A stretch of DNA of 32,000 nt from Candidatus Thorarchaeota archaeon. Lineage in GTDB: Archaea; Asgardarchaeota; Heimdallarchaeia; Hodarchaeales; Hodarchaeaceae. Below are positions 22,130 to 32,000 of the stretch, one piece after another. How positions within the stretch are numbered: the stretch's first letter is position 1; every line of letters starts with the position of its first letter. Location of the stretch: NCBI GenBank assembly GCA_048882505.1, contig JBHLRO010000005.1:197204-229203 (forward strand), read 5' to 3'. Under the pieces are notes generated by a model. The model was given only the letters and a program-made list of their open reading frames with translations. It searched no databases and was not told where the DNA came from. Position numbers and translations under genes: made by a program.

Positions 22130-22753
22130 ATGTCCATTTGGTTTTGGTTTAGTGTGATTGGCGAAATTGCCATTCTTCCGCTCTACGTTCTATCTTTGGA
22201 ACACCAAAAGCTTTCGGACAAGTTTGGAGATACTAAAGGTAAAATCCTAGGGGATATATTGGGTATAGTTTCAGGATGGGGTTTTTTCGTTTTTTTGATT
22301 GGGATCTGGGTCACTCCCCAGCCAAGGTTTACAATACCGTTCCCCCTCGAATTTTCATTCACCATCCCAGTTATTGAACTGGAAATCCCCCTTATCCACA
22401 TGGCAACATCCTTACCGTTAATTCTAGTGGTTTTGTTGATTGCCTTAACAGGGGTCTCTGAAATGGGTTTGAAGGTAGCAGAAACTCATAGAGCCGCAGA
22501 AATCATAGATTCGGGTATATATTCTCATATTAGGCATCCTCAATATGTTGGGGCATTCCTTGCTCATTTAGCCCTGTCAATTTTGTTTTCTTCATTTTAT
22601 TCACTACTCATAACCCCTTTCATAGGTGGGTACCTCTATTTTCTCGTTTGGAAAGAAGAGAAGGAATTATTGAAGGAATTCGGCAGTACTTATGAGGCCT
22701 ACCAATCTAGGGTTCCCAAATTTTTCCCAATAACAAGAAAGAGGAAGATTTGA
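22130..22753 (+). CDS. ICMT/PEMT-family membrane methyltransferase
   Basis: SGIYSHIRHPQY and EE-x-x-L-x-x-x-FG-x-x-Y-x-x-Y-x-x-RVPKFFP; several TM helices. Confidence 0.87.
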   Translation: MSIWFWFSVIGEIAILPLYVLSLEHQKLSDKFGDTKGKILGDILGIVSGWGFFVFLIGIWVTPQPRFTIPFPLEFSFTIPVIELEIPLIHMATSLPLILVVLLIALTGVSEMGLKVAETHRAAEIIDSGIYSHIRHPQYVGAFLAHLALSILFSSFYSLLITPFIGGYLYFLVWKEEKELLKEFGSTYEAYQSRVPKFFPITRKRKI

Positions 22754-23056: not shown

Positions 23057-23695
23057 ATGAGGTTAGTTAAATTGCGAAAAAGGTATAATATCTTAACTAT
23101 GGGTATATTTCTATTCTTAATTACTTTAATCGTTTTTTCGCCGTTCACAATTGTTGGTGTGAACGAGAATACCTCCATACAAATTCGTACCTTACCTGAA
23201 AATCAGTTCAGTGTTACCCAATTAAGCTTACTCCCTGATACTACATATACTATCTATTTTTGGAACCCCGTTGAAAATCACTTTCATAACCTGATAATAG
23301 CCACTGACGGAAGAACGATTACCCCCGAAATCGCTGTTCTAGGTCCCATCGGTACTGATCTTGTCATTGGTAAAACTGATTTATCGATCGTAACCGACGA
23401 GGACTTTGGAGGGCCAGATAAGGGTATTGTCGGCTCTGTAACATGGACTACGCCCAAAGACAGCATGTACGTGAGTTTCTTCTGCTCCTGTCCCGGACAC
23501 TTCGGGGCCGGAATGAAAGGTTATTTTACAGTTGGCAATCCAGTCGGCCCCCCTCCCTTTAAAGAGACGGCGACCGTAAGTGAACTTATTTTCGCCTTAA
23601 CTTCCGTTCTGGTAGCCGTTTTGGCTTTACCAGTGATTGCATTAGCTATTGCTCTTCCACTGGATCGTAAATTCAAGCCTATTACGCCAGCGTAA
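23057..23695 (+). CDS. Membrane-anchored cupredoxin (type-1 blue copper; plastocyanin/auracyanin-like)
   Basis: HNL...FFCSCPGHFGAGMKG gives the H...C-x4-H-x4-M ligand set; N-terminal signal/TM and C-terminal TM helix. Confidence 0.88.
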   Translation: MRLVKLRKRYNILTMGIFLFLITLIVFSPFTIVGVNENTSIQIRTLPENQFSVTQLSLLPDTTYTIYFWNPVENHFHNLIIATDGRTITPEIAVLGPIGTDLVIGKTDLSIVTDEDFGGPDKGIVGSVTWTTPKDSMYVSFFCSCPGHFGAGMKGYFTVGNPVGPPPFKETATVSELIFALTSVLVAVLALPVIALAIALPLDRKFKPITPA

Positions 23696-23830: not shown

Positions 23831-24154
23831 TTAATCAACCATTTCACCTTCGAGATCATACCCTGCTTTTTGCCACGCCTCCAAACCTCCCGCAAATCGA
23901 CGTAAATTTTTGAATCCTGCTTTTTCCAATGAGATGTATGCCACTTGACTTGCCGAACACTCTGGGTTTGAACAATAAACCACGATTTCGTCATCTTTGC
24001 TAAGATATTGGGGAGCCTCTTCTGGATTGTGCACGGAAATAGAACCAGGGATGTGCATTGCTCTAAAATACCAATCTCCCAGAGTAAAAACTAGTTTAAA
24101 ACTATCTCCGTTATCCAATTTTTCCTTTAGTTCATTAGTAGAAATCGTTTTCAT
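23831..24154 (-). CDS. Single-domain rhodanese-like sulfurtransferase
   Basis: HIPGS, IVVYCSNPECSAS, L-x-x-AGF-x-N...GGLEAW; no signal peptide. Confidence 0.92.
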   Translation of the reverse strand: MKTISTNELKEKLDNGDSFKLVFTLGDWYFRAMHIPGSISVHNPEEAPQYLSKDDEIVVYCSNPECSASQVAYISLEKAGFKNLRRFAGGLEAWQKAGYDLEGEMVD

Positions 24155-24744: not shown

Positions 24745-26460
24745 ATGCGTCAACCTAATTTACAACTTAAACGGAAAAGTAACTTTTTCCTGTTTTTTAT
24801 TTTTTTACTTTTAATAGTTGGAAAACCCGATTCTGCGGTACTAGCATATCCTAACCATGGTTTTCCTCCTTTATCAGGGTATGTTTCAGTTCCATACGTT
24901 GCTTCAAGCGAGGTTGTAATTGATGGAACTGTTATGAGCAACGAATACCCAGTACGACTTGAGGATTCGCACGAGCTTACAGGAATTGTTGTTTCTCTTA
25001 GTCACAACGGCTCAGATTTATTTGTTGCTTTGGAAAGCCCATCAAAAGGATGGGTCGGCATAGGATTTGGGCCCAAGGGGGTTCCGATGGACGGATCCAA
25101 CATCATCATGGGATACGTAGCAGATAATGGAACATTTGTTATCGAGGATCATTACGGGCTGGGCATACAGCACTTTTCTGATATTGATGCTGGAGGAACC
25201 GATAACATTGGGGCAGCGGCAGGCACGGAGAATGAGACGTTTACCGTTATCGAATTCATCTTTCCCATCTCATCAGGGGATAGTTATGATCATTCTTGGG
25301 TTTTGGGTCAGGAAAACGGTTTTTTCCTCGCAAACCATCCAACAGCTGACAATATGGCCAGCTATCATCCAGAACATTCCAATCTCATTACGATTAAACT
25401 TGAAACTACTTCTGTTATTATGCCATTGGTCACCAATCCGATTGTTTCTGTTGATGGCTTGATCGGCCAAAATGAATACGAATCATCTGTTTTGGATCCG
25501 TTAACTGAGATTACTGTCTACTTAGAACACAATAACACTGATATGTTTATTGGGCTGATTTCACCTCCAGGCCATAGTGGTTGGCTAGGTATTGGTTTCG
25601 GACCCCAGAATGCTCATAAAAATGGATCTAATATAATTATTGGTTTTGTCAACGCTTCAGGGGTTCATGTAAGTGACGATTACGGAGAACCAGGTGATCA
25701 TCATCCTGATACGTCTGCCAATGGAACCTTTGATATAAAGGCTAGTGCCGGAACCGAGAATTCAAGTCATACCATAATCGAATTTATTTTTCCATTAAAT
25801 TCCTCAGATATCCCATTGGACCATGCCTATGCCGTCAATTCAACGTATGGGTTTTTCGTTTCTCACAACCGAACGGCCGATGACTTTGTCAGCATGCACC
25901 CAGAACATTCTATTACATACGACCTTTATGTATCTCCGTTTGAAACTTTAGAAATAAGCACAATGGTTTCAGCCGCAGATACGGACGGAACTCCGATCAC
26001 AACTGGAGGGGAGCTTCCTCAAGGAACTAGAATTATCCTTACTGCGAATTTCAATGTTCTAGAGGGTGGTGATCCGGATCTCATGGATGGGAGACGTGTC
26101 AATCTATACCTGAACTTTTCTTTCGGAAGAATGTTATTAGCATCAAACATTACCAATACAGACAGTAAGGCCATATTTGTTTATGATTTAGAAAGAGTAG
26201 CAGGTCTTATCAATTTCATAGTAGAATTTCCAGGAGCCACGGTTGGAACCAAAATACTTGCGCAAGACGAAGGATACTTCACCATTAATTTGATTCCTGA
26301 AGAACATATCGAGGAGTTTATTTGGTTTGATGATCCAAATATTTTTGGTGCTGTATCGGCTGGCGCATTGTTTCTTGTTGTTTGTGTTTTTTGCATTTAT
26401 GGATATGTGGTCTATAACGCAGTACGAATAAGATCTGATAAAAAGGCATACGAAACATAA
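24745..26460 (+). CDS. Secreted, C-terminally membrane-anchored protein with two DOMON domains plus an Ig-like stalk
   Basis: Signal peptide; two repeats offset by 177 aa: GWVGIGFGP-x4-MDGSNIIMG...YHPEH and GWLGIGFGP-x4-KNGSNIIIG...MHPEH; 13 N-x-S/T sequons; TM at about aa 534-558. Confidence 0.87.
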   Translation: MRQPNLQLKRKSNFFLFFIFLLLIVGKPDSAVLAYPNHGFPPLSGYVSVPYVASSEVVIDGTVMSNEYPVRLEDSHELTGIVVSLSHNGSDLFVALESPSKGWVGIGFGPKGVPMDGSNIIMGYVADNGTFVIEDHYGLGIQHFSDIDAGGTDNIGAAAGTENETFTVIEFIFPISSGDSYDHSWVLGQENGFFLANHPTADNMASYHPEHSNLITIKLETTSVIMPLVTNPIVSVDGLIGQNEYESSVLDPLTEITVYLEHNNTDMFIGLISPPGHSGWLGIGFGPQNAHKNGSNIIIGFVNASGVHVSDDYGEPGDHHPDTSANGTFDIKASAGTENSSHTIIEFIFPLNSSDIPLDHAYAVNSTYGFFVSHNRTADDFVSMHPEHSITYDLYVSPFETLEISTMVSAADTDGTPITTGGELPQGTRIILTANFNVLEGGDPDLMDGRRVNLYLNFSFGRMLLASNITNTDSKAIFVYDLERVAGLINFIVEFPGATVGTKILAQDEGYFTINLIPEEHIEEFIWFDDPNIFGAVSAGALFLVVCVFCIYGYVVYNAVRIRSDKKAYET

Positions 26461-26487
26461 TAGGATATATTGGAGGAAATAGGATTC

Positions 26488-27336
26488 ATGCCAACGTCAC
26501 GAAGAAATTTCTTGAAACTATTAGGCGCAATAGGAGCAGTAGGAGGAACCCTTGCAATTACATCCAAATTAAATTTCAATCAACAATCCCTAGGACGTCA
26601 AAACTCTGCCACAGAAGAGGAATTTCCTCCCCAGTGGGTTATGATGATTGATTTGGAAAAATGTGACGGGTGTCAAGATAAGGATATTAGCTCTTGCTTG
26701 GAAGCTTGCGCAATTATGCATTATGTTCCTAAACGATTTAAGGAATCAGGCGAACCAACTGAACCATCGGAGCCGCAGGCTTGGATTGAATTATATGAAA
26801 AAGAAGACAACAGTTTGGCAGGGAAATACTTCTTACCACGGCCTTGTATGCATTGTGAAAGCCCCCCTTGCCTGTGGGTTTGCCCAACAGGTGCAACTTT
26901 CAGGAACGATGAAGGATTAGTATTAATAGATCACCGCATATGTATTGGTTGCCGAATGTGCATCGCGGCCTGTCCCTATAATGCACGCTACTTTAATTGG
27001 GGCGAACCTGAACCGTGGTTCGGCACTAGGGAGGAGGAAATTGAATATGCGAAGCAATTAGGGGCATATTCCGCAGAATATCCCCTGCCTCACCAAAGAG
27101 GAGTTGTTGAGAAGTGTGATTTTTGTTCCCATTCTGCCAAAAATGGCCAGCTCCCAGCTTGTGTGGGAGCATGCCCAGGCGGAGCGCTATATTTCGGGAA
27201 TCTAAACCATGACTTAGTGACAAATGGAACCTTCCAAACAGTTCCTCTTTCAGATACTGTCAAAGAAAGAATGGGGTATCGCCTACAAGAGGAATTGGGT
27301 ACAAAACCTCGAATATTTTACTTACCTAAGCGCTGA
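26488..27336 (+). CDS. Tat-exported 4x[4Fe-4S] electron-transfer subunit (NrfC/DsrO/QrcC/ActB2-like)
   Basis: SRRNFLK twin-arginine signal from ATG 26488; 16 Cys in four groups (CDGC..C..C, CMHC..C..CP, CIGCRMC..CPY, CDFC..C..CP). Confidence 0.93.
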   Translation: MPTSRRNFLKLLGAIGAVGGTLAITSKLNFNQQSLGRQNSATEEEFPPQWVMMIDLEKCDGCQDKDISSCLEACAIMHYVPKRFKESGEPTEPSEPQAWIELYEKEDNSLAGKYFLPRPCMHCESPPCLWVCPTGATFRNDEGLVLIDHRICIGCRMCIAACPYNARYFNWGEPEPWFGTREEEIEYAKQLGAYSAEYPLPHQRGVVEKCDFCSHSAKNGQLPACVGACPGGALYFGNLNHDLVTNGTFQTVPLSDTVKERMGYRLQEELGTKPRIFYLPKR

Positions 27337-27351
27337 AAGAGGGAACTGTAT

Positions 27352-28842
27352 ATGCAATCAGAAAGTTCAAACGCATTTCTTGAGGAACACAAGAGCGCAC
27401 AAATCTTATTACACCCCGTAATGAAAACGGGAAAAACCTACTTCGTTGCTCTCCTGTTAATGGTTCTTGTGTTAATGTTCGCTGCTTATGCTTATCTAAA
27501 TCAGTTTGTCAACGGTTTGATCGTAACTGGTTTGCGAGACAAGGTTTCGTGGGGAGTTTACATAACCAATTTCGTTTTCTTTATTGGGATCTCGCATGCA
27601 GGAACATTCATATCAGCTGTTCTTCGTGTAACTGATGCTCAGTGGAGACATCCGATAACCCGAATTGGCGAACTATTGACAGCATTTGGGCTGTTCATTG
27701 GTGCAGCCATGGTTTTGATTGATATAGGGCGTATTGACAGAATCTTATATGTTCTTACGATTGGCAAGTTCAATTCACCTATTCTCTGGGACTTTTTAGC
27801 CCTCTCAATGTATATAGTTGGTAGCCTGGTTTACCTTTACATAGCACTTATTCCTGATTTTGCCTTGATGCGAGATCATCTCAGCACAGATGCTTTCTGG
27901 CTCAAACGATGGATGTGGAGATTCCTGGCCGTTGGTTGGCAAGGTACAGAGGCTCAACATAAGCGGTTAAATCGAGGAATCGGATTCATGGCATGGATTC
28001 TCATTCCAGTAATGATAACAGTTCATACCGTTGTTTCTTACACCGTTGGAGGAGTTATGCTACGTCCAGGTTGGCGTAGTACAATCTTTGGACCTTATTT
28101 CGTTATTGGGGCATTATATTCTGGAACTGCAGCTTTGATCACGGCGATGTTCGTCATAAGGGTTATCTACCCCGAATACAAGAAGATATTGACAGAACGA
28201 CACTTCCGAAATATGGGCGTAATAATGGTTGTTTTAAGCCTTGGATATGCCTATTTCACGTTTTCTGAGTACATTGGCGCTCTCTATTCAACGCCAACTG
28301 AAGAAGCAGAGCTCCTTAACGCTCTCTTCTATGGCGACTATGCGTTATTATTCTGGTTCTCGATCGTGGGCGGAATAGTAATCCCAGGAAACATTTTCTT
28401 CTTTACGAGGGCCCGTAGCATTACCGGAATTTTCATTGCCTCGATCCTTGTCAATATAGGGATGTGGATAAAGCGGTTCGTGATTATCGTTCCAGCTATG
28501 GCGCGACCTTGGATAGCAGGACCTTGGGGGACTTATATCCCCACTTGGGTTGAGGCTGCCATCACTTTAGGTGCATTTACCGCATTGGTATTTGGAATTG
28601 CAATTGCCCTGAAGTTCTTTCCCATTGCGCCATTATGGGAGATTCTCGAAGATGAGAAAAATCGTAAATTGTGGAAAGAGGCAGATCTGAAGTATCCCAC
28701 ATCATTTGCTGATCAAACTTTTCCTCTTTCAGAGGTTCAGAAACAAGAAGAAGAAAATATTGCCAGTGAACTGATTCTAGGCAAGAAAGAAAAAATAAAG
28801 GACGAAAGGCCGCCAGAATTCAGTTTCGAGGACCGTGACTAA
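27352..28842 (+). CDS. NrfD/PsrC-family quinone-interacting membrane subunit, ActC/QrcD-like (10 TM)
   Basis: WGVYITNFVFFIGISHAGTFISA, WR-x-PI-x-R, DIGR, SPILWD, TVHTVVS, GW-x-STIFGPYFV-x-GA-x-YSG, KRFVIIVP. Confidence 0.92.
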   Translation: MQSESSNAFLEEHKSAQILLHPVMKTGKTYFVALLLMVLVLMFAAYAYLNQFVNGLIVTGLRDKVSWGVYITNFVFFIGISHAGTFISAVLRVTDAQWRHPITRIGELLTAFGLFIGAAMVLIDIGRIDRILYVLTIGKFNSPILWDFLALSMYIVGSLVYLYIALIPDFALMRDHLSTDAFWLKRWMWRFLAVGWQGTEAQHKRLNRGIGFMAWILIPVMITVHTVVSYTVGGVMLRPGWRSTIFGPYFVIGALYSGTAALITAMFVIRVIYPEYKKILTERHFRNMGVIMVVLSLGYAYFTFSEYIGALYSTPTEEAELLNALFYGDYALLFWFSIVGGIVIPGNIFFFTRARSITGIFIASILVNIGMWIKRFVIIVPAMARPWIAGPWGTYIPTWVEAAITLGAFTALVFGIAIALKFFPIAPLWEILEDEKNRKLWKEADLKYPTSFADQTFPLSEVQKQEEENIASELILGKKEKIKDERPPEFSFEDRD

Positions 28843-28904: not shown

Positions 28905-30602
28905 ATGAAAAACAGATATACCAAGTTTTTTGGTGTAACTTTCTCTGTCCTGATCGCCAGTACTTCAATGGCCATGCAATTAAGGGTGTCCACCAATGTT
29001 CCCCACTATATTGTGAATATAGCCCCACAGGAACTTGAACAGATAGCTAATGAAATAGCTAATGGAATACTTAGGGAAGCCATTGAGGATGACAATTTTG
29101 CGAAATGGCCCAGAATCACTGATGGCCCTCCGCCAGGATGGCTGGGATCTTGGAATAATTTCTATTATGGATACTGGTGGGGTACCGCAGGAGTAGCAGA
29201 CACCCTGATCACTCTATTTGATGCGACACAGAATCAGACCTATCTCAATTATGCTGAAAAGGCCGGTAACTACCTTATGCAAAATGCTCAGGACCACCCT
29301 GATGGTGGAATTTACTGGTATGGTGCTGAGGATTATAATACAACATATATAGGGATGAAATACGGAAATGCGGGGATTGCTCTTTTCTTCCTAGACCTTT
29401 TAAAATCTACAAACAATCAAACTTATTACGAACCATTGGAAAACTCTCTTTTAACGCTAGAGGCAGTAGCACACAATTCCTCGGAAAATGATACCTTCTG
29501 GAGTTATACCCTTGGTGGTTCCGAAGGCGTTACTGATATTACATATGGAGTAGCAGGAATAGCCAACGTATTCCTAGAGGCCGGCGTCTCTCTAAATAAC
29601 ACTCATTGGATAGATATCGCAATTAGTTCAGGGGAATGGTTAACGAAGCTTGCCAGCAAAATCCACACTGACGGACAACAAGAATGGAGCATACCATGGT
29701 CAGATTTCGCTCCATTTAACACCTCCTTTTTCACGGGGTACGGAGGAGGAAACGCAGGTATTGGTTCGTTCCTATTATCTCTTTATAGTTCAACAAATGA
29801 TTCGCAGTGGCTAGATGCAGCGATCTTCATTGGAAATTGGTTACTTTCAAAACGAACTAACGGAACCTGGCTGAATGGTGGACCAACCTATATTACGGAG
29901 TTAGATCCCAATTCAACCAGACATCATACAATTGCTGGTATAGATAGTGGAGTTGCAGGAATAGGTCAATTTTTATTGGATTTATATCTCAACACAGCTA
30001 ATATGAGGTATGCAGAAGGTGTATTTGACGCAGCAAGTTGGTTAATAGGCCATGCCAACAAATCGGATCAAGGTTTGAAATGGGCGAAAACTACAGCTGA
30101 ACCAGATTCCAATGCCTATTTCACGGGATATTCCTCGGGCGCTGCTGGAATTGGAAGCTTTTTTGCCGAGATTTATTCCGCGTTCGGATGTGAGAAGTTC
30201 AAAACCGCCATGCTTGGCGCAGCAGAATGGTTGGCTTCGCTGCGAAAAGATGCTTACCTATTTCCAGCTGCAACGGGGACGACTCGTCACCCATTTCATC
30301 TTAAGCAATACGGACATCACCTTGGGTACCATAGCGGAGCGGCAGGTGTGGCCTTATATTTCTTGAAGGCGGCCGAGGGCCTACAATCAACTCCAAAATA
30401 TCCCGAAGTCATAAATTGTTCTTCTCTTCCCGAGTTTGGAGGATTACTACCCCAAACATATATTAATAATCAAAGTTCAGAAACAACAGTAAACGGGCAG
30501 ATTAATGACATTGAGCAGCTAATCGTCTCCTTACTTGGATTAGTTACGGTATCGATGGTATTGCTAATCCCAGTACTGGCATTACGAAGGAAAGACGCAT
30601 GA
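28905..30602 (+). CDS. Secreted, membrane-anchored LanC-like (alpha/alpha barrel) protein lacking Zn-binding and catalytic residues
   Basis: Seven G-x-AG repeats (GTAG, GNAG, GVAG, GNAG, GVAG, GAAG, GAAG); no GxAHG, WCxG or CHG; signal peptide, many sequons, C-terminal TM. Confidence 0.8.
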   Translation: MKNRYTKFFGVTFSVLIASTSMAMQLRVSTNVPHYIVNIAPQELEQIANEIANGILREAIEDDNFAKWPRITDGPPPGWLGSWNNFYYGYWWGTAGVADTLITLFDATQNQTYLNYAEKAGNYLMQNAQDHPDGGIYWYGAEDYNTTYIGMKYGNAGIALFFLDLLKSTNNQTYYEPLENSLLTLEAVAHNSSENDTFWSYTLGGSEGVTDITYGVAGIANVFLEAGVSLNNTHWIDIAISSGEWLTKLASKIHTDGQQEWSIPWSDFAPFNTSFFTGYGGGNAGIGSFLLSLYSSTNDSQWLDAAIFIGNWLLSKRTNGTWLNGGPTYITELDPNSTRHHTIAGIDSGVAGIGQFLLDLYLNTANMRYAEGVFDAASWLIGHANKSDQGLKWAKTTAEPDSNAYFTGYSSGAAGIGSFFAEIYSAFGCEKFKTAMLGAAEWLASLRKDAYLFPAATGTTRHPFHLKQYGHHLGYHSGAAGVALYFLKAAEGLQSTPKYPEVINCSSLPEFGGLLPQTYINNQSSETTVNGQINDIEQLIVSLLGLVTVSMVLLIPVLALRRKDA

Positions 30603-31381
30603 AAATACCAAAAAAAGTAAGAAAAAACCTATTTCCTCTTATTCTAGTTGTCCACATTTTGTTAGGATCGAAAATCCTTCTGAAATCTCTGAGCTCCGAT
30701 GTTCCAGTGATTGACGGAATATTCACAGAGGAAGAATGGGAAGGTGGCGATCGGAGGATTTTACAAATGGCAGATGGAACGACAATCGACGTGACGATTA
30801 AATTCAATCTAAGCCATATTTTTATTCTGATTCAGGTCAAGGATGATGATCCAAGGTTATTTGGAGAGAGCGGGGGACACGATTTCTTTGGAGTGGAATT
30901 TGATAATAATGGCGATAAGGTTCCAATGGGCCTTTCTTTTTCCCCCGACGATGCTCTATTTGTGTCTTATAATCAACCTGGAGGCCAAGATTTCTTTCTT
31001 CAAGGAATGGGAAATCCTGCCGTCCCGGATATCCTCGAAAATGGCACTAATGACGGAACAGGCAACATAGGACTTAGTTCCAATGGTGATGGGTTAATCA
31101 TGGAGAGTAGCAAACCTCTTGATTCAAACGATTCTCCCGGATATGATGCTTCCTTAAACCCAGGGGATAAATTTAATTTGATGTTTGCTTACTGGGATAA
31201 CCACTTTGGTCCGTTAATCCAGAGTACTTCTCATAGTGATTGGACTACTTACGAGGTGCCTGGCCAGCCTCAGCTGAATATATGGGAATCCGAATTGATA
31301 TTTGAAATCGTATCTGGCATTGGTATTCTTCTCCTAATGTTTTTAGCTAGATATGGATTAAAAAGACCTAAATCCATGTAG
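30599..31381 (+). CDS. Membrane-anchored DOMON-like (ethylbenzene dehydrogenase gamma / CBM9-like) protein
   Basis: PVIDG-x4-EW, GVEFDNNGD-x-VPM, E-x-x-KPL-x-x-x-D-x-x-x-x-D, AYWD...H; parallels the DOMON repeats of the 24745 gene; ATGA overlap with the LanC-like gene. Confidence 0.7.
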   Translation: MKIPKKVRKNLFPLILVVHILLGSKILLKSLSSDVPVIDGIFTEEEWEGGDRRILQMADGTTIDVTIKFNLSHIFILIQVKDDDPRLFGESGGHDFFGVEFDNNGDKVPMGLSFSPDDALFVSYNQPGGQDFFLQGMGNPAVPDILENGTNDGTGNIGLSSNGDGLIMESSKPLDSNDSPGYDASLNPGDKFNLMFAYWDNHFGPLIQSTSHSDWTTYEVPGQPQLNIWESELIFEIVSGIGILLLMFLARYGLKRPKSM

Positions 31382-31393
31382 GGAATGGAGTGG

Positions 31394-32000
31394 TTATGTG
31401 GTAGAATTAGAATTGGAACTTTGAATCCTAGCTAGTTCAAAAACAATCATAAGTCGTAATAGCACAATATATGGAAAAAAAACTTCCAATCCGCAAATCA
31501 TTAATCCTGTCAGACCAACTGAACGGTCAATTTTATGCTTGCTGTACAATGAAACCAAACCAGTAATCCCCAGGAATATTGCTCCTAGAATAAGCGTTAA
31601 AAAGAATGATTGAACAGATTGGGAAATTCCAGGAATTTCTCTAAATATGGTTAGGCGAAGGGTCTGGGTTAGAGAAGAGGTGAGGATTTGAACCGTTAAT
31701 TGCCGAGAAGACAGCAAAATACTAACCATAAAGCTCACAAGGAGCGGGATTGTGAAAGCCAAGGCTGTTTTATAGCCCTTTCTTTGATTCCGATAATATG
31801 GTGTCACAATCGCGGTGGAAGAAAAAACAAGAATAGCGAAGAGAGCGAATAAGGTTCCCAAGAATTGAAAATAGAAAATAAACTGACCTAAATAAAGAAC
31901 TTCAAGTAATCCAGTCATTACGAAACTAATCAAAGCTAGATTTGCAGTAAACATAATTAGTCTTAGATTCGCAAACTCCAAAGATTCCAATAGTTTTGAT
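31394..32000 (-). CDS. Multi-pass membrane protein, probably 5'-truncated by the window edge
   Basis: About five to six hydrophobic segments; frame remains open from the track start TTG 31990 to the window end. Confidence 0.6.
   Translation of the reverse strand, partial: SKLLESLEFANLRLIMFTANLALISFVMTGLLEVLYLGQFIFYFQFLGTLFALFAILVFSSTAIVTPYYRNQRKGYKTALAFTIPLLVSFMVSILLSSRQLTVQILTSSLTQTLRLTIFREIPGISQSVQSFFLTLILGAIFLGITGLVSLYSKHKIDRSVGLTGLMICGLEVFFPYIVLLRLMIVFELARIQSSNSNSTT

Follow-up and report, generated by a model that had tools for sequence, protein, structure and literature searches.

The window analyzed here is a 32-kb stretch that forms the terminal part of contig C5 of a metagenome-assembled genome of the Heimdall group of Asgard archaea (Hodarchaeales-like; genome G000, 4.3 Mb, completeness 94.6%). 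It carries an operon of five same-strand genes, in the order P0002, P0003, P0004, P0001, and P0005, the fourth of which, P0001, encodes a member of the LanC-like superfamily, both by sequence and by fold, among predicted redox proteins. Public databases label genes of this type “lanthionine synthetase LanC family protein” or “lantibiotic modifying enzyme.” These labels are misleading. P0001 has lost the zinc site and the acid/base apparatus of the cyclases, is predicted to be exported, and belongs to a clade whose genes are found recurrently next to genes for proteins with DOMON or EB_dh domains. The genes of the operon are the following (coordinates are those of the window):

24745-26460, + strand: P0002, first gene of the operon, an exported, anchored double-DOMON protein (Pfam DOMON, E = 3.9e-22, in two stretches; CDH-cyt, E = 3.9e-5)
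26470-27336, + strand: P0003, an NrfC/DsrO-like four-cluster Fe-S protein with the twin-arginine signal SRRNFLK (Fer4_11, E = 1.3e-25; TAT_signal, 19.7 bits)
27352-28842, + strand: P0004, an NrfD-family integral membrane quinone-interacting subunit (Pfam NrfD, E = 6.8e-33; nine hydrophobic segments)
28905-30602, + strand: P0001, the exported, membrane-anchored, zinc-less LanC-fold protein (open reading frame [ORF] of 565 amino acids [aa])
30599-31381, + strand: P0005, 260 aa, an EB_dh-gamma/DOMON-superfamily beta-sandwich, by its fold match, with a C-terminal anchor, translationally coupled to P0001

The intergenic gaps in the operon are 9, 15, and 62 nucleotides (nt), the last of them after the NrfD gene, and the stop codon of P0001 overlaps the start codon of P0005 in an ATGA. 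Judged from this gene arrangement and the common strand, the genes appear to be co-transcribed with an NrfCD-type module. P0002 contains 13 N-glycosylation sequons and hydrophobic segments at both ends. The match of P0003 to the DsrO model, with E = 5.7e-55, is yet under the cut-off. No Pfam match was obtained for P0005; its BLASTP match is to an EB_dh protein of a paralogous locus (E = 6e-4), and the best match of its structural model (predicted local distance difference test [pLDDT] score of 74) is the gamma subunit of ethylbenzene dehydrogenase (PDB 2ivf_C, E = 5e-6), with further fold matches to Nxr gamma, CBM9 modules (E = 2e-5), the DOMON domain of dopamine beta-hydroxylase (DBH), and cellobiose dehydrogenase (CDH). 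With P0005 taken as EB_dh-gamma/DOMON-like, the barrel gene is flanked on either side by genes of the DOMON superfamily. The contigs of P0005 homologs and those of LanC-like homologs have four lengths in common, and a PDB sequence search with an EB_dh neighbor gave no match. The Pfam scan found no catalytic molybdoenzyme-type or c-type cytochrome subunit encoded in the operon. An orthologous locus in genome G061 consists of five genes in identical order, with 85% identity, and was the sole match in a scan of genome contigs.

P0001 matches the LanC/LanCL family of Pfam (LANC_like, PF05147) with E = 4.9e-24 and 85 bits, above the curated cut-off of 23.2, and profile matches to LanCL2, LanCL1, GCR2, and NisC were obtained. 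The protein atlas contributed just generic LanC-family clusters, with scores of <0.8. Seven G-x-A-G motifs (aa 93-96, 154-157, 215-218, 282-285, 349-352, 412-415, and 478-481) follow each other at a spacing of 61 to 67 aa, a regularity that far exceeds chance. The AlphaFold2 model, built on 31 homologs (mean pLDDT of 89.2), shows the toroid that is typical of the LanC/LanCL family:

29016-30392, + strand: seven-hairpin (alpha/alpha)7 toroid, aa ~38-496, with the seven G-x-A-G motifs (14 helices in 7 pairs in the model; VIA alignments span aa 32-496)

Structural alignments run end to end, matching aa 32-495 of the model to aa 14-392 of LanCL1 and aa 45-493 to aa 7-396 of NisC, and LanC-family structures clearly outrank glycosidase and epimerase barrels as matches to the model. 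Matches of P0001 to glycosidase families in Pfam (GH88, GH76, and GH127 among them) are all under their cut-offs. Giant relatives of 1100 to 1900 aa from the public database (P0029, P0030, P0031, P0034, P0040, and P0049) contain several LanC-like toroids in tandem; Pfam marks four to five stretches in each of them, and they have no further recognizable domain.

The toroid lies between two hydrophobic segments:

28905-28979, + strand: signal peptide, or signal anchor, at the N terminus, aa 1-25 (the model has a hydrophobic helix spanning aa 2-25)
30507-30590, + strand: transmembrane anchor at the C terminus, aa 535-562, with the basic tail RRKDA behind it (hydropathy; model helix at aa 534-564)

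Residue conservation was scored across 32 LanC-like proteins of Heimdallarchaeia, nearly all of which have the N-terminal hydrophobic segment, and the design that combines a signal with a C-terminal anchor recurs across nearly all relatives examined. P0001 also contains 13 sequons, as against 5.6 expected from its composition. From the signal, the sequons, and the C-terminal membrane segment with its basic tail, the barrel is predicted to face outward and to be tethered at its C terminus, unlike the cytoplasmic zinc cyclases and LanCL proteins.

The zinc ligands of NisC are C284, C330, and H331, and its acid/base residues are H212 and D141 (PMC10604976). The corresponding places in P0001 are occupied as follows, according to structural mapping:

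29745-29747, + strand: G281, in the place of the LanC acid/base His (NisC H212, repeat 4), in the motif GYGGGNAG
29943-29945, + strand: D347, in the place of the zinc ligand C284 of NisC (repeat 5), in the motif GIDSGVAG
30132-30137, + strand: S410-S411, in the place of the zinc ligands C330 and H331 of NisC (repeat 6), in the motif GYSSGAAG

In the translation, GYGGG is found at aa 278-282, GIDSG at aa 345-349, and GYSSG at aa 408-412. This one-to-one mapping of repeats is based on the full-length structural alignments and not on sequence alignments; sequence-only alignments to LanCL1 and ThurKC were shifted by two repeats and were discarded for residue mapping. Since such alignments slip in this way, every repeat register was checked for the Cys-Cys-His combination as well. 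The residues at positions -2/-1 ahead of the seven GxxG motifs are WW, KY, TY, GG, DS, SS, and HS, and the only two Cys residues of the protein, C429 and C505, are not within any repeat motif. With no Cys at these positions in all seven repeats, no rotation of the register yields a NisC-type Cys-Cys-His site. None of the 32 relatives carries Cys at the -2/-1 positions, and 20 of them have no Cys at all.

The genomic setting is not that of a lanthipeptide cluster of classes I to IV, in which a dehydratase is accompanied by a nearby precursor gene. The Pfam scan detected no lanthipeptide domains in the operon and no kinase or lyase domain in P0001, the intergenic gaps near the operon contain no Cys/Ser/Thr-rich precursor-like small ORF, and the neighbors in 36 related LanC-like loci (see below) are not lanthipeptide genes. 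No match to Lant_dehydr_N (PF04738) or to the LanM domain DUF4135 (PF13575) was found in the window's genome; control genomes were equally silent, so that this absence of a dehydratase carries little weight. A true lanthipeptide cyclase was rejected on the combination of the missing dehydratase, the missing precursor, and the non-cytoplasmic location. It is also most improbable that P0001 acts as a metal-independent thioether cyclase that forms lanthionine- or labionin-type links in a secreted peptide or in surface proteins. The dehydration that precedes such links requires ATP/GTP or glutamyl-tRNA and is intracellular, whereas the barrel is predicted to face outward; in addition, no kinase, lyase, dehydratase, or precursor-like ORF is at hand, and most of the redox neighbors have no Cys outside their membrane segments. 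What speaks for such an activity is that ThurKC cyclizes its substrate without zinc ligands (PMC10604976).

An earlier sequence-only reading of this DNA had described P0001 as a repurposed barrel of seven G-x-AG repeats, devoid of the His of GxAHG and of the WCxG and CHG ligands, equipped with a signal peptide, sequons, and a C-terminal anchor, and embedded in a redox operon with no precursor or dehydratase in sight, and the data presented above bear out this description. To regard zinc-less LanC folds as unknown would be too strong, as the cyclase domains of class III LanKC proteins are metal-independent (PMC10604976).

Besides the glycines and structural aromatic residues, what is conserved family-wide is a Lys/Arg-Tyr dyad and a Tyr/Phe residue, with no polar set of acid/base or metal-ligand character. 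These two features, and a third one that is specific for the close subfamily, are located as follows:

29358-29363, + strand: K152-Y153, positions -2/-1 of repeat 2, a basic-aromatic dyad (KY or RY in 30 of the 32 Heimdallarchaeia proteins)
29544-29546, + strand: Y214, position -1 of repeat 3 (occupied by Tyr or Phe in 30 of the 32 proteins)
30288-30332, + strand: His-rich loop before repeat 7, aa 462-476, with five His among 15 residues (from the translation)

The K152-Y153 dyad is the best-kept non-glycine feature of the family, and by analogy with the LanC architecture it would line, together with Y214, the mouth or cavity of the toroid. Conservation in the close subfamily was assessed in alignment A2 of nine close homologs. 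D347 is an invariant Asp there and is replaced by Y, F, L, or W in members of family f6 from the same clade. The sequence QYGHHL of the His-rich loop is found in seven of the nine close homologs and H472 in all nine, with H472 not kept in the f6 members; this loop could provide a subfamily-specific contact to a metal or to heme.

The gene neighborhoods were surveyed in 83 Heimdallarchaeia genomes (GTDB), which contain 36 LanC-like loci; a locus was counted as positive if a DOMON or EB_dh match in Pfam was located within ~10 kb of the LanC-like gene. By this measure, 15 of the 36 loci are positive, and one more can be added by synteny. The expectation by chance, derived from the counts of DOMON/EB_dh matches and the genome sizes of the census, is ~0.9 adjacencies, a figure that sets a scale for the 15 to 16 observed rather than a P value, since the genomes are related and not independent. 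A quick maximum-likelihood tree of the loci places P0001, its paralogs, and members of families f2, f6, and f11 in clade A (SH-like approximate likelihood ratio test [SH-aLRT] support of 100). Of its 13 loci, 10 are DOMON/EB_dh positive, and the three negative ones come from contigs of just 2.6 and 4.6 kb or border on a contig end. In a second subclade, B2, six of the eight loci are positive, within a cassette built around a DOMON-fn3 giant:

L061:5937-14701, L060:2451-11463, L059:3-5531, and L055:1-3818 (families f5 and f6): second cassette, consisting of a DOMON-fn3 giant of ~900 aa, an exported protein of 310 aa that matches no Pfam family, a 193-aa membrane protein, and the barrel

The 193-aa membrane protein has a weak likeness to DUF2231 (E = 6e-4, under the cut-off). 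Across 301 sampled genomes of the phylum, the LanC-like family is nearly confined to Heimdallarchaeia, and scans of metagenome contigs with alignment A2 and with the distant homolog P0036 yielded no loci.

Within the positive loci, the gene order varies. A P0001 paralog on contig C17 of the window's genome (46% identity) is encoded between two EB_dh genes, directly downstream of coxB-coxA-coxC (L032:3508-12583, which corresponds to G000:C17:43547-52622), and the same arrangement is seen in G061 (contig C94, L033). A third barrel copy of G061 (contig C89) is convergent with the gene for a 1486-aa protein with a DOMON domain and 11 fn3 domains. In the window's genome, an ortholog of this giant with 85% identity (G000:C4:3-1973, - strand) is truncated, as contig C4 begins inside it, so that the third barrel copy of this genome may be unassembled. 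In an f6 locus (G042:C47), the order is EB_dh, EB_dh, barrel, thioredoxin-like protein, CcsA-like Cytochrom_C_asm protein, response regulator, DOMON, Tat Fe-S protein, and NrfD, which is the component set of the window, reordered. The G061 operon has two EB_dh genes and a CcmF/CcsA-like gene just beyond it, G037:C399 has the order EB_dh, CcsA-like, barrel, barrel, and in G046:C2 a distance of 27 nt separates the EB_dh gene from the barrel gene, with a multicopper-oxidase-like gene after the two. The DOMON/EB_dh neighbor is constant, and the third partner varies among NrfCD, coxABC, a multicopper or cupredoxin protein, a CcsA-like protein, and the DOMON-fn3 giant, being always a respiratory or heme-handling gene. 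Since P0001 and its closest relatives are almost always located beside DOMON/EB_dh genes, the barrel is probably in the service of respiration.

The co-occurrence with a DOMON-NrfCD module, which the sequence-only reading had put forward for a test, holds for the DOMON part, represented by the recurrent DOMON/EB_dh neighbor, but not for NrfCD, which is found beside the barrel in two lineages only (the window with its G061 ortholog, and G042:C47). The same reading had left it to a fold comparison to choose between LanC/LanCL and carbohydrate (AGE or glycoside hydrolase) barrels, a comparison that favors the LanC family, and to the homologs to show whether they belong to lanthipeptide clusters, which none of the 36 loci checked does.

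It could be argued that the barrel is an envelope protein, or one that binds or processes glycans, which shares a “surface glycoprotein” island with the redox genes and is functionally unlinked to them, some of the EB_dh-like neighbors being CBM9-like. The Pfam family LANC_like belongs to the six-hairpin glycosidase clan, and the aromatic-rich cavity, the sub-threshold GH88, GH76, and GH127 matches, the CBM9 match of the P0005 model, and the many family members outside DOMON contexts would suit such a role. We regard it as quite unlikely, given that the barrel gene is translationally coupled within the operon that includes NrfC and NrfD, the recurrence of the EB_dh, DOMON, NrfC, NrfD, and CcsA-like set in a different order in another family, and the barrel copy that adjoins coxABC. 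Besides, LanC structures stand clearly above glycosidases among the fold matches, and no carbohydrate-active genes were seen in the barrel loci examined (G000:C17, G061:C89, G042:C47, and G046:C2).

The constancy of the DOMON/EB_dh neighbor next to a variable membrane partner is also what would be expected if the barrel were a catalytic or substrate-binding terminal subunit that holds an extracellular substrate in its cavity and exchanges electrons through its DOMON/EB_dh partner, by analogy with CDH/LPMO, DBH, and CYBDOM. This explanation, which is close to the idea of the sequence-only reading of a barrel that could determine the module's substrate, could account for the fact that each paralog has its own DOMON partner, and a set of polar residues that might form an active or metal site (D99, E142, K152, N155, N283, D347, and H472) is kept in the close subfamily. 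However, these candidates are not conserved past the close subfamily, as the substitutions of D347 in f6 illustrate, no redox cofactor site or metal-ligand set is recognizable, and the glycosidase matches are all sub-threshold. A terminal subunit of this kind therefore seems rather unlikely.

CcsA/CcmF-like Cytochrom_C_asm genes are found beside the barrel and DOMON genes in three lineages: in G061 (contig C16; L035:4969-6990, - strand), in G042 (contig C47; L037:10974-12896, - strand), where a thioredoxin-like companion gene (L037:10268-10894) is also present, and in G037 (contig C399; L049:3420-5393, + strand), immediately upstream of two barrels. Identity between the CcsA-like gene on G000:C4 and the G061 copy amounts to just 36%, a sign that the latter may be a second, specialized paralog. 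Contig C4 of the window's genome also carries, at ~95199 (- strand), a 446-aa ORF whose product, a candidate multiheme cytochrome c, has six CXXCH motifs as well as a hydrophobic segment at the N terminus; this genome is thus not free of c-type cytochromes, and the CcsA-like genes have ordinary clients.

These genes raise the possibility that the barrel is an extracytoplasmic factor for the handling or insertion of heme b, which loads the DOMON/EB_dh proteins with heme exported by the CcsA/CcmF-like protein. The aromatic cavity and the Tyr residue would then hold the porphyrin and the Lys/Arg residue would bind a propionate, consistent with the conservation of K/R-Y and Y/F at positions that, by analogy, line the cavity. 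The specialized CcsA-like copy of G061 would also fit. Nevertheless, several paralogs per genome, each next to its own client, would be unusual for a maturation factor, the barrel is missing from most DOMON-bearing genomes of the genus, and the putative six-CXXCH cytochrome offers CcsA a different clientele. We know of no heme chaperone with a LanC fold, and consider this role unlikely.

Several other genes are located near the operon. A 212-aa exported protein encoded ~1 kb upstream (window 23057-23695, + strand) has a weak match to plastocyanin/azurin-type copper-binding proteins (E = 1.7e-3, under the cut-off); this cupredoxin-like gene is kept in G061 (L035:15816-16454), and its product could exchange electrons with the DOMON module as a partner. 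Just upstream of the operon there are also a rhodanese-domain gene (23831-24154, - strand) and a gene for an ICMT/PEMT-like membrane methyltransferase (22130-22753, + strand). Downstream, at 31394-31999 (- strand), a gene that runs past the contig end has an ortholog (L035:7138-8115) whose 325-aa product has a hydrophobic segment at its N terminus and is not assigned to any Pfam family; the gene is convergent with the operon in both genomes.

Our preferred, still tentative, reading, to which we assign a probability of roughly 0.4, is that P0001 is a non-catalytic binding or docking partner of surface heme-b-type DOMON/EB_dh carriers; the terminal-subunit and heme-loading roles discussed above are close rivals that the data do not separate from it. 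The conservation of only the K/R-Y and Tyr/Phe positions, the presence of one barrel per locus, and the translational coupling favor a stoichiometric, non-catalytic partner, and a dedicated barrel for each DOMON/EB_dh locus, as seen within one genus, fits such a partner better than it fits a general enzyme or maturation factor. P0001 would pair outside the cell with the translationally coupled P0005, and perhaps also with the double-DOMON protein P0002, and would hold these carriers at the membrane surface beside the NrfD subunit with its quinol site and the NrfC-like, Tat-exported Fe-S protein. Electrons could then flow from quinol through NrfD/NrfC to the hemes of the DOMON/EB_dh proteins and on to an acceptor, either external or in the membrane (perhaps a cupredoxin or the oxidase), or in the reverse direction. 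The contact or ligand site would be the mouth of the toroid with its basic-aromatic cluster (K/R152-Y153 and Y/F214).

Several observations weigh against this proposal of a docking partner. About half of the LanC-like loci of the class have no DOMON neighbor, mainly those outside clade A and subclade B2, and neither do the ~750-aa LanC-like forms and the hits in three genomes of other Asgard classes; with such distant genes lacking the neighbor, the association is clade-specific rather than family-wide. DOMON proteins are encoded in 14 of the 21 other genomes of the same genus, and only two have a barrel (one of them a 1013-aa form of a different type from P0001), so that DOMON proteins do not generally depend on the barrel. 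The polar residues kept in the close subfamily, listed above, could make up an active or metal site. The longer relatives (990 to 2825 aa) are tandem multi-toroid proteins, none of which is fused to a DOMON, EB_dh, or heme domain. Finally, the heme binding of the partners is deduced from family and fold, and the same fold includes the sugar-binding CBM9 modules.

A bolder proposal, which we hold to be doubtful, would make the toroid an obligate, unrecognized part of an all-b-heme extracytoplasmic electron transfer system in Heimdallarchaeia. In this scheme, DOMON/EB_dh proteins would replace c-type cytochromes between the NrfCD quinol module, cupredoxins, and the heme-copper oxidase, and the toroid would dock the carriers or load them with heme exported by the dedicated CcsA-like protein.

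Known LanC-fold proteins are intracellular thioether-forming enzymes, namely, lantibiotic cyclases and LanCL glutathione transferases, whereas the clade described here is predicted to be exported, has lost this chemistry, and is tied in the genomes to DOMON/EB_dh and respiratory genes. Among archaea, its hosts, the Heimdallarchaeia, are the group nearest to eukaryotes. Should the barrel prove to be a subunit or an assembly factor, it would supply a missing piece for the still sketchy aerobic and quinone-linked electron transport chains that have been proposed in this group, and a testable handle on how b-heme proteins are organized or matured outside the archaeal cell; if it is an obligate component, the “lantibiotic cyclase” fold would have been recruited into respiration. 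In any case, the current annotation of these genes as lanthionine synthetases or lantibiotic enzymes should be treated with caution. DOMON genes beside coxABC have been noted in Hodarchaeales, but not their LanC-like partner (Appler et al. 2024, bioRxiv 10.1101/2024.07.04.601786), and in the literature library searched, no paper was found to connect LanC-like proteins to DOMON, NrfD, or Asgard archaea. The gene context, that is, the pairing of the barrel with DOMON/EB_dh, is a new result.

Among the known systems, LanCL1, LanCL2, and plant GCR2 (PDB 3e6u, 8czk, 6wq1, and 3t33) are cytosolic or membrane-associated zinc proteins with Cys-Cys-His ligands that add glutathione to dehydroamino acids. 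In contrast, P0001 is predicted to be exported, glycosylated, and anchored by a transmembrane segment, and it has no Cys or His at the ligand positions. NisC and MadC (PDB 2g0d/2g02 and 8byk) are encoded with LanB and a precursor, whereas P0001 is encoded with DOMON/EB_dh and NrfCD. The ThurKC domain (PDB 8sam/8sao/8sap; PMC10604976) shares with P0001 a zinc-less fold, but it is the C-terminal part of a cytoplasmic lyase-kinase-cyclase that acts on a leader-bearing peptide. P0001 is a stand-alone, extracellular (as predicted) protein with neither a fused lyase nor a protein kinase (Pkinase) domain and with no precursor, and the replacement residues differ as well (D/S/S in P0001 versus S726/F770/D771 in ThurKC).

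On the redox side, EbdC (2ivf_C) and Nxr gamma (7b04_C), which are matched by P0005 and the EB_dh neighbors, are heme-b gamma subunits of enzymes of the type II dimethyl sulfoxide (DMSO)-reductase family, and P0003 and P0004 match the DsrO/NrfC and NrfD/DsrP components of NrfCD-type modules, such as those of Dsr, Qrc, and alternative complex III. In the known gamma-subunit and NrfCD complexes, there is a molybdoenzyme or there are c-type cytochromes, and a LanC-fold subunit is absent; the present operon has a LanC-fold barrel instead. The eukaryotic DOMON pairs, such as the CDH cytochrome domain with LPMO, DBH, and CYBDOM, share with the operon described here the logic of an extracytoplasmic b-heme DOMON domain that serves a dedicated neighbor module. 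In those pairs, the role of the partner falls to a copper enzyme, a flavin enzyme, or a cytochrome b561, whereas in the Heimdallarchaeia loci it would be a protein with the LanC fold.

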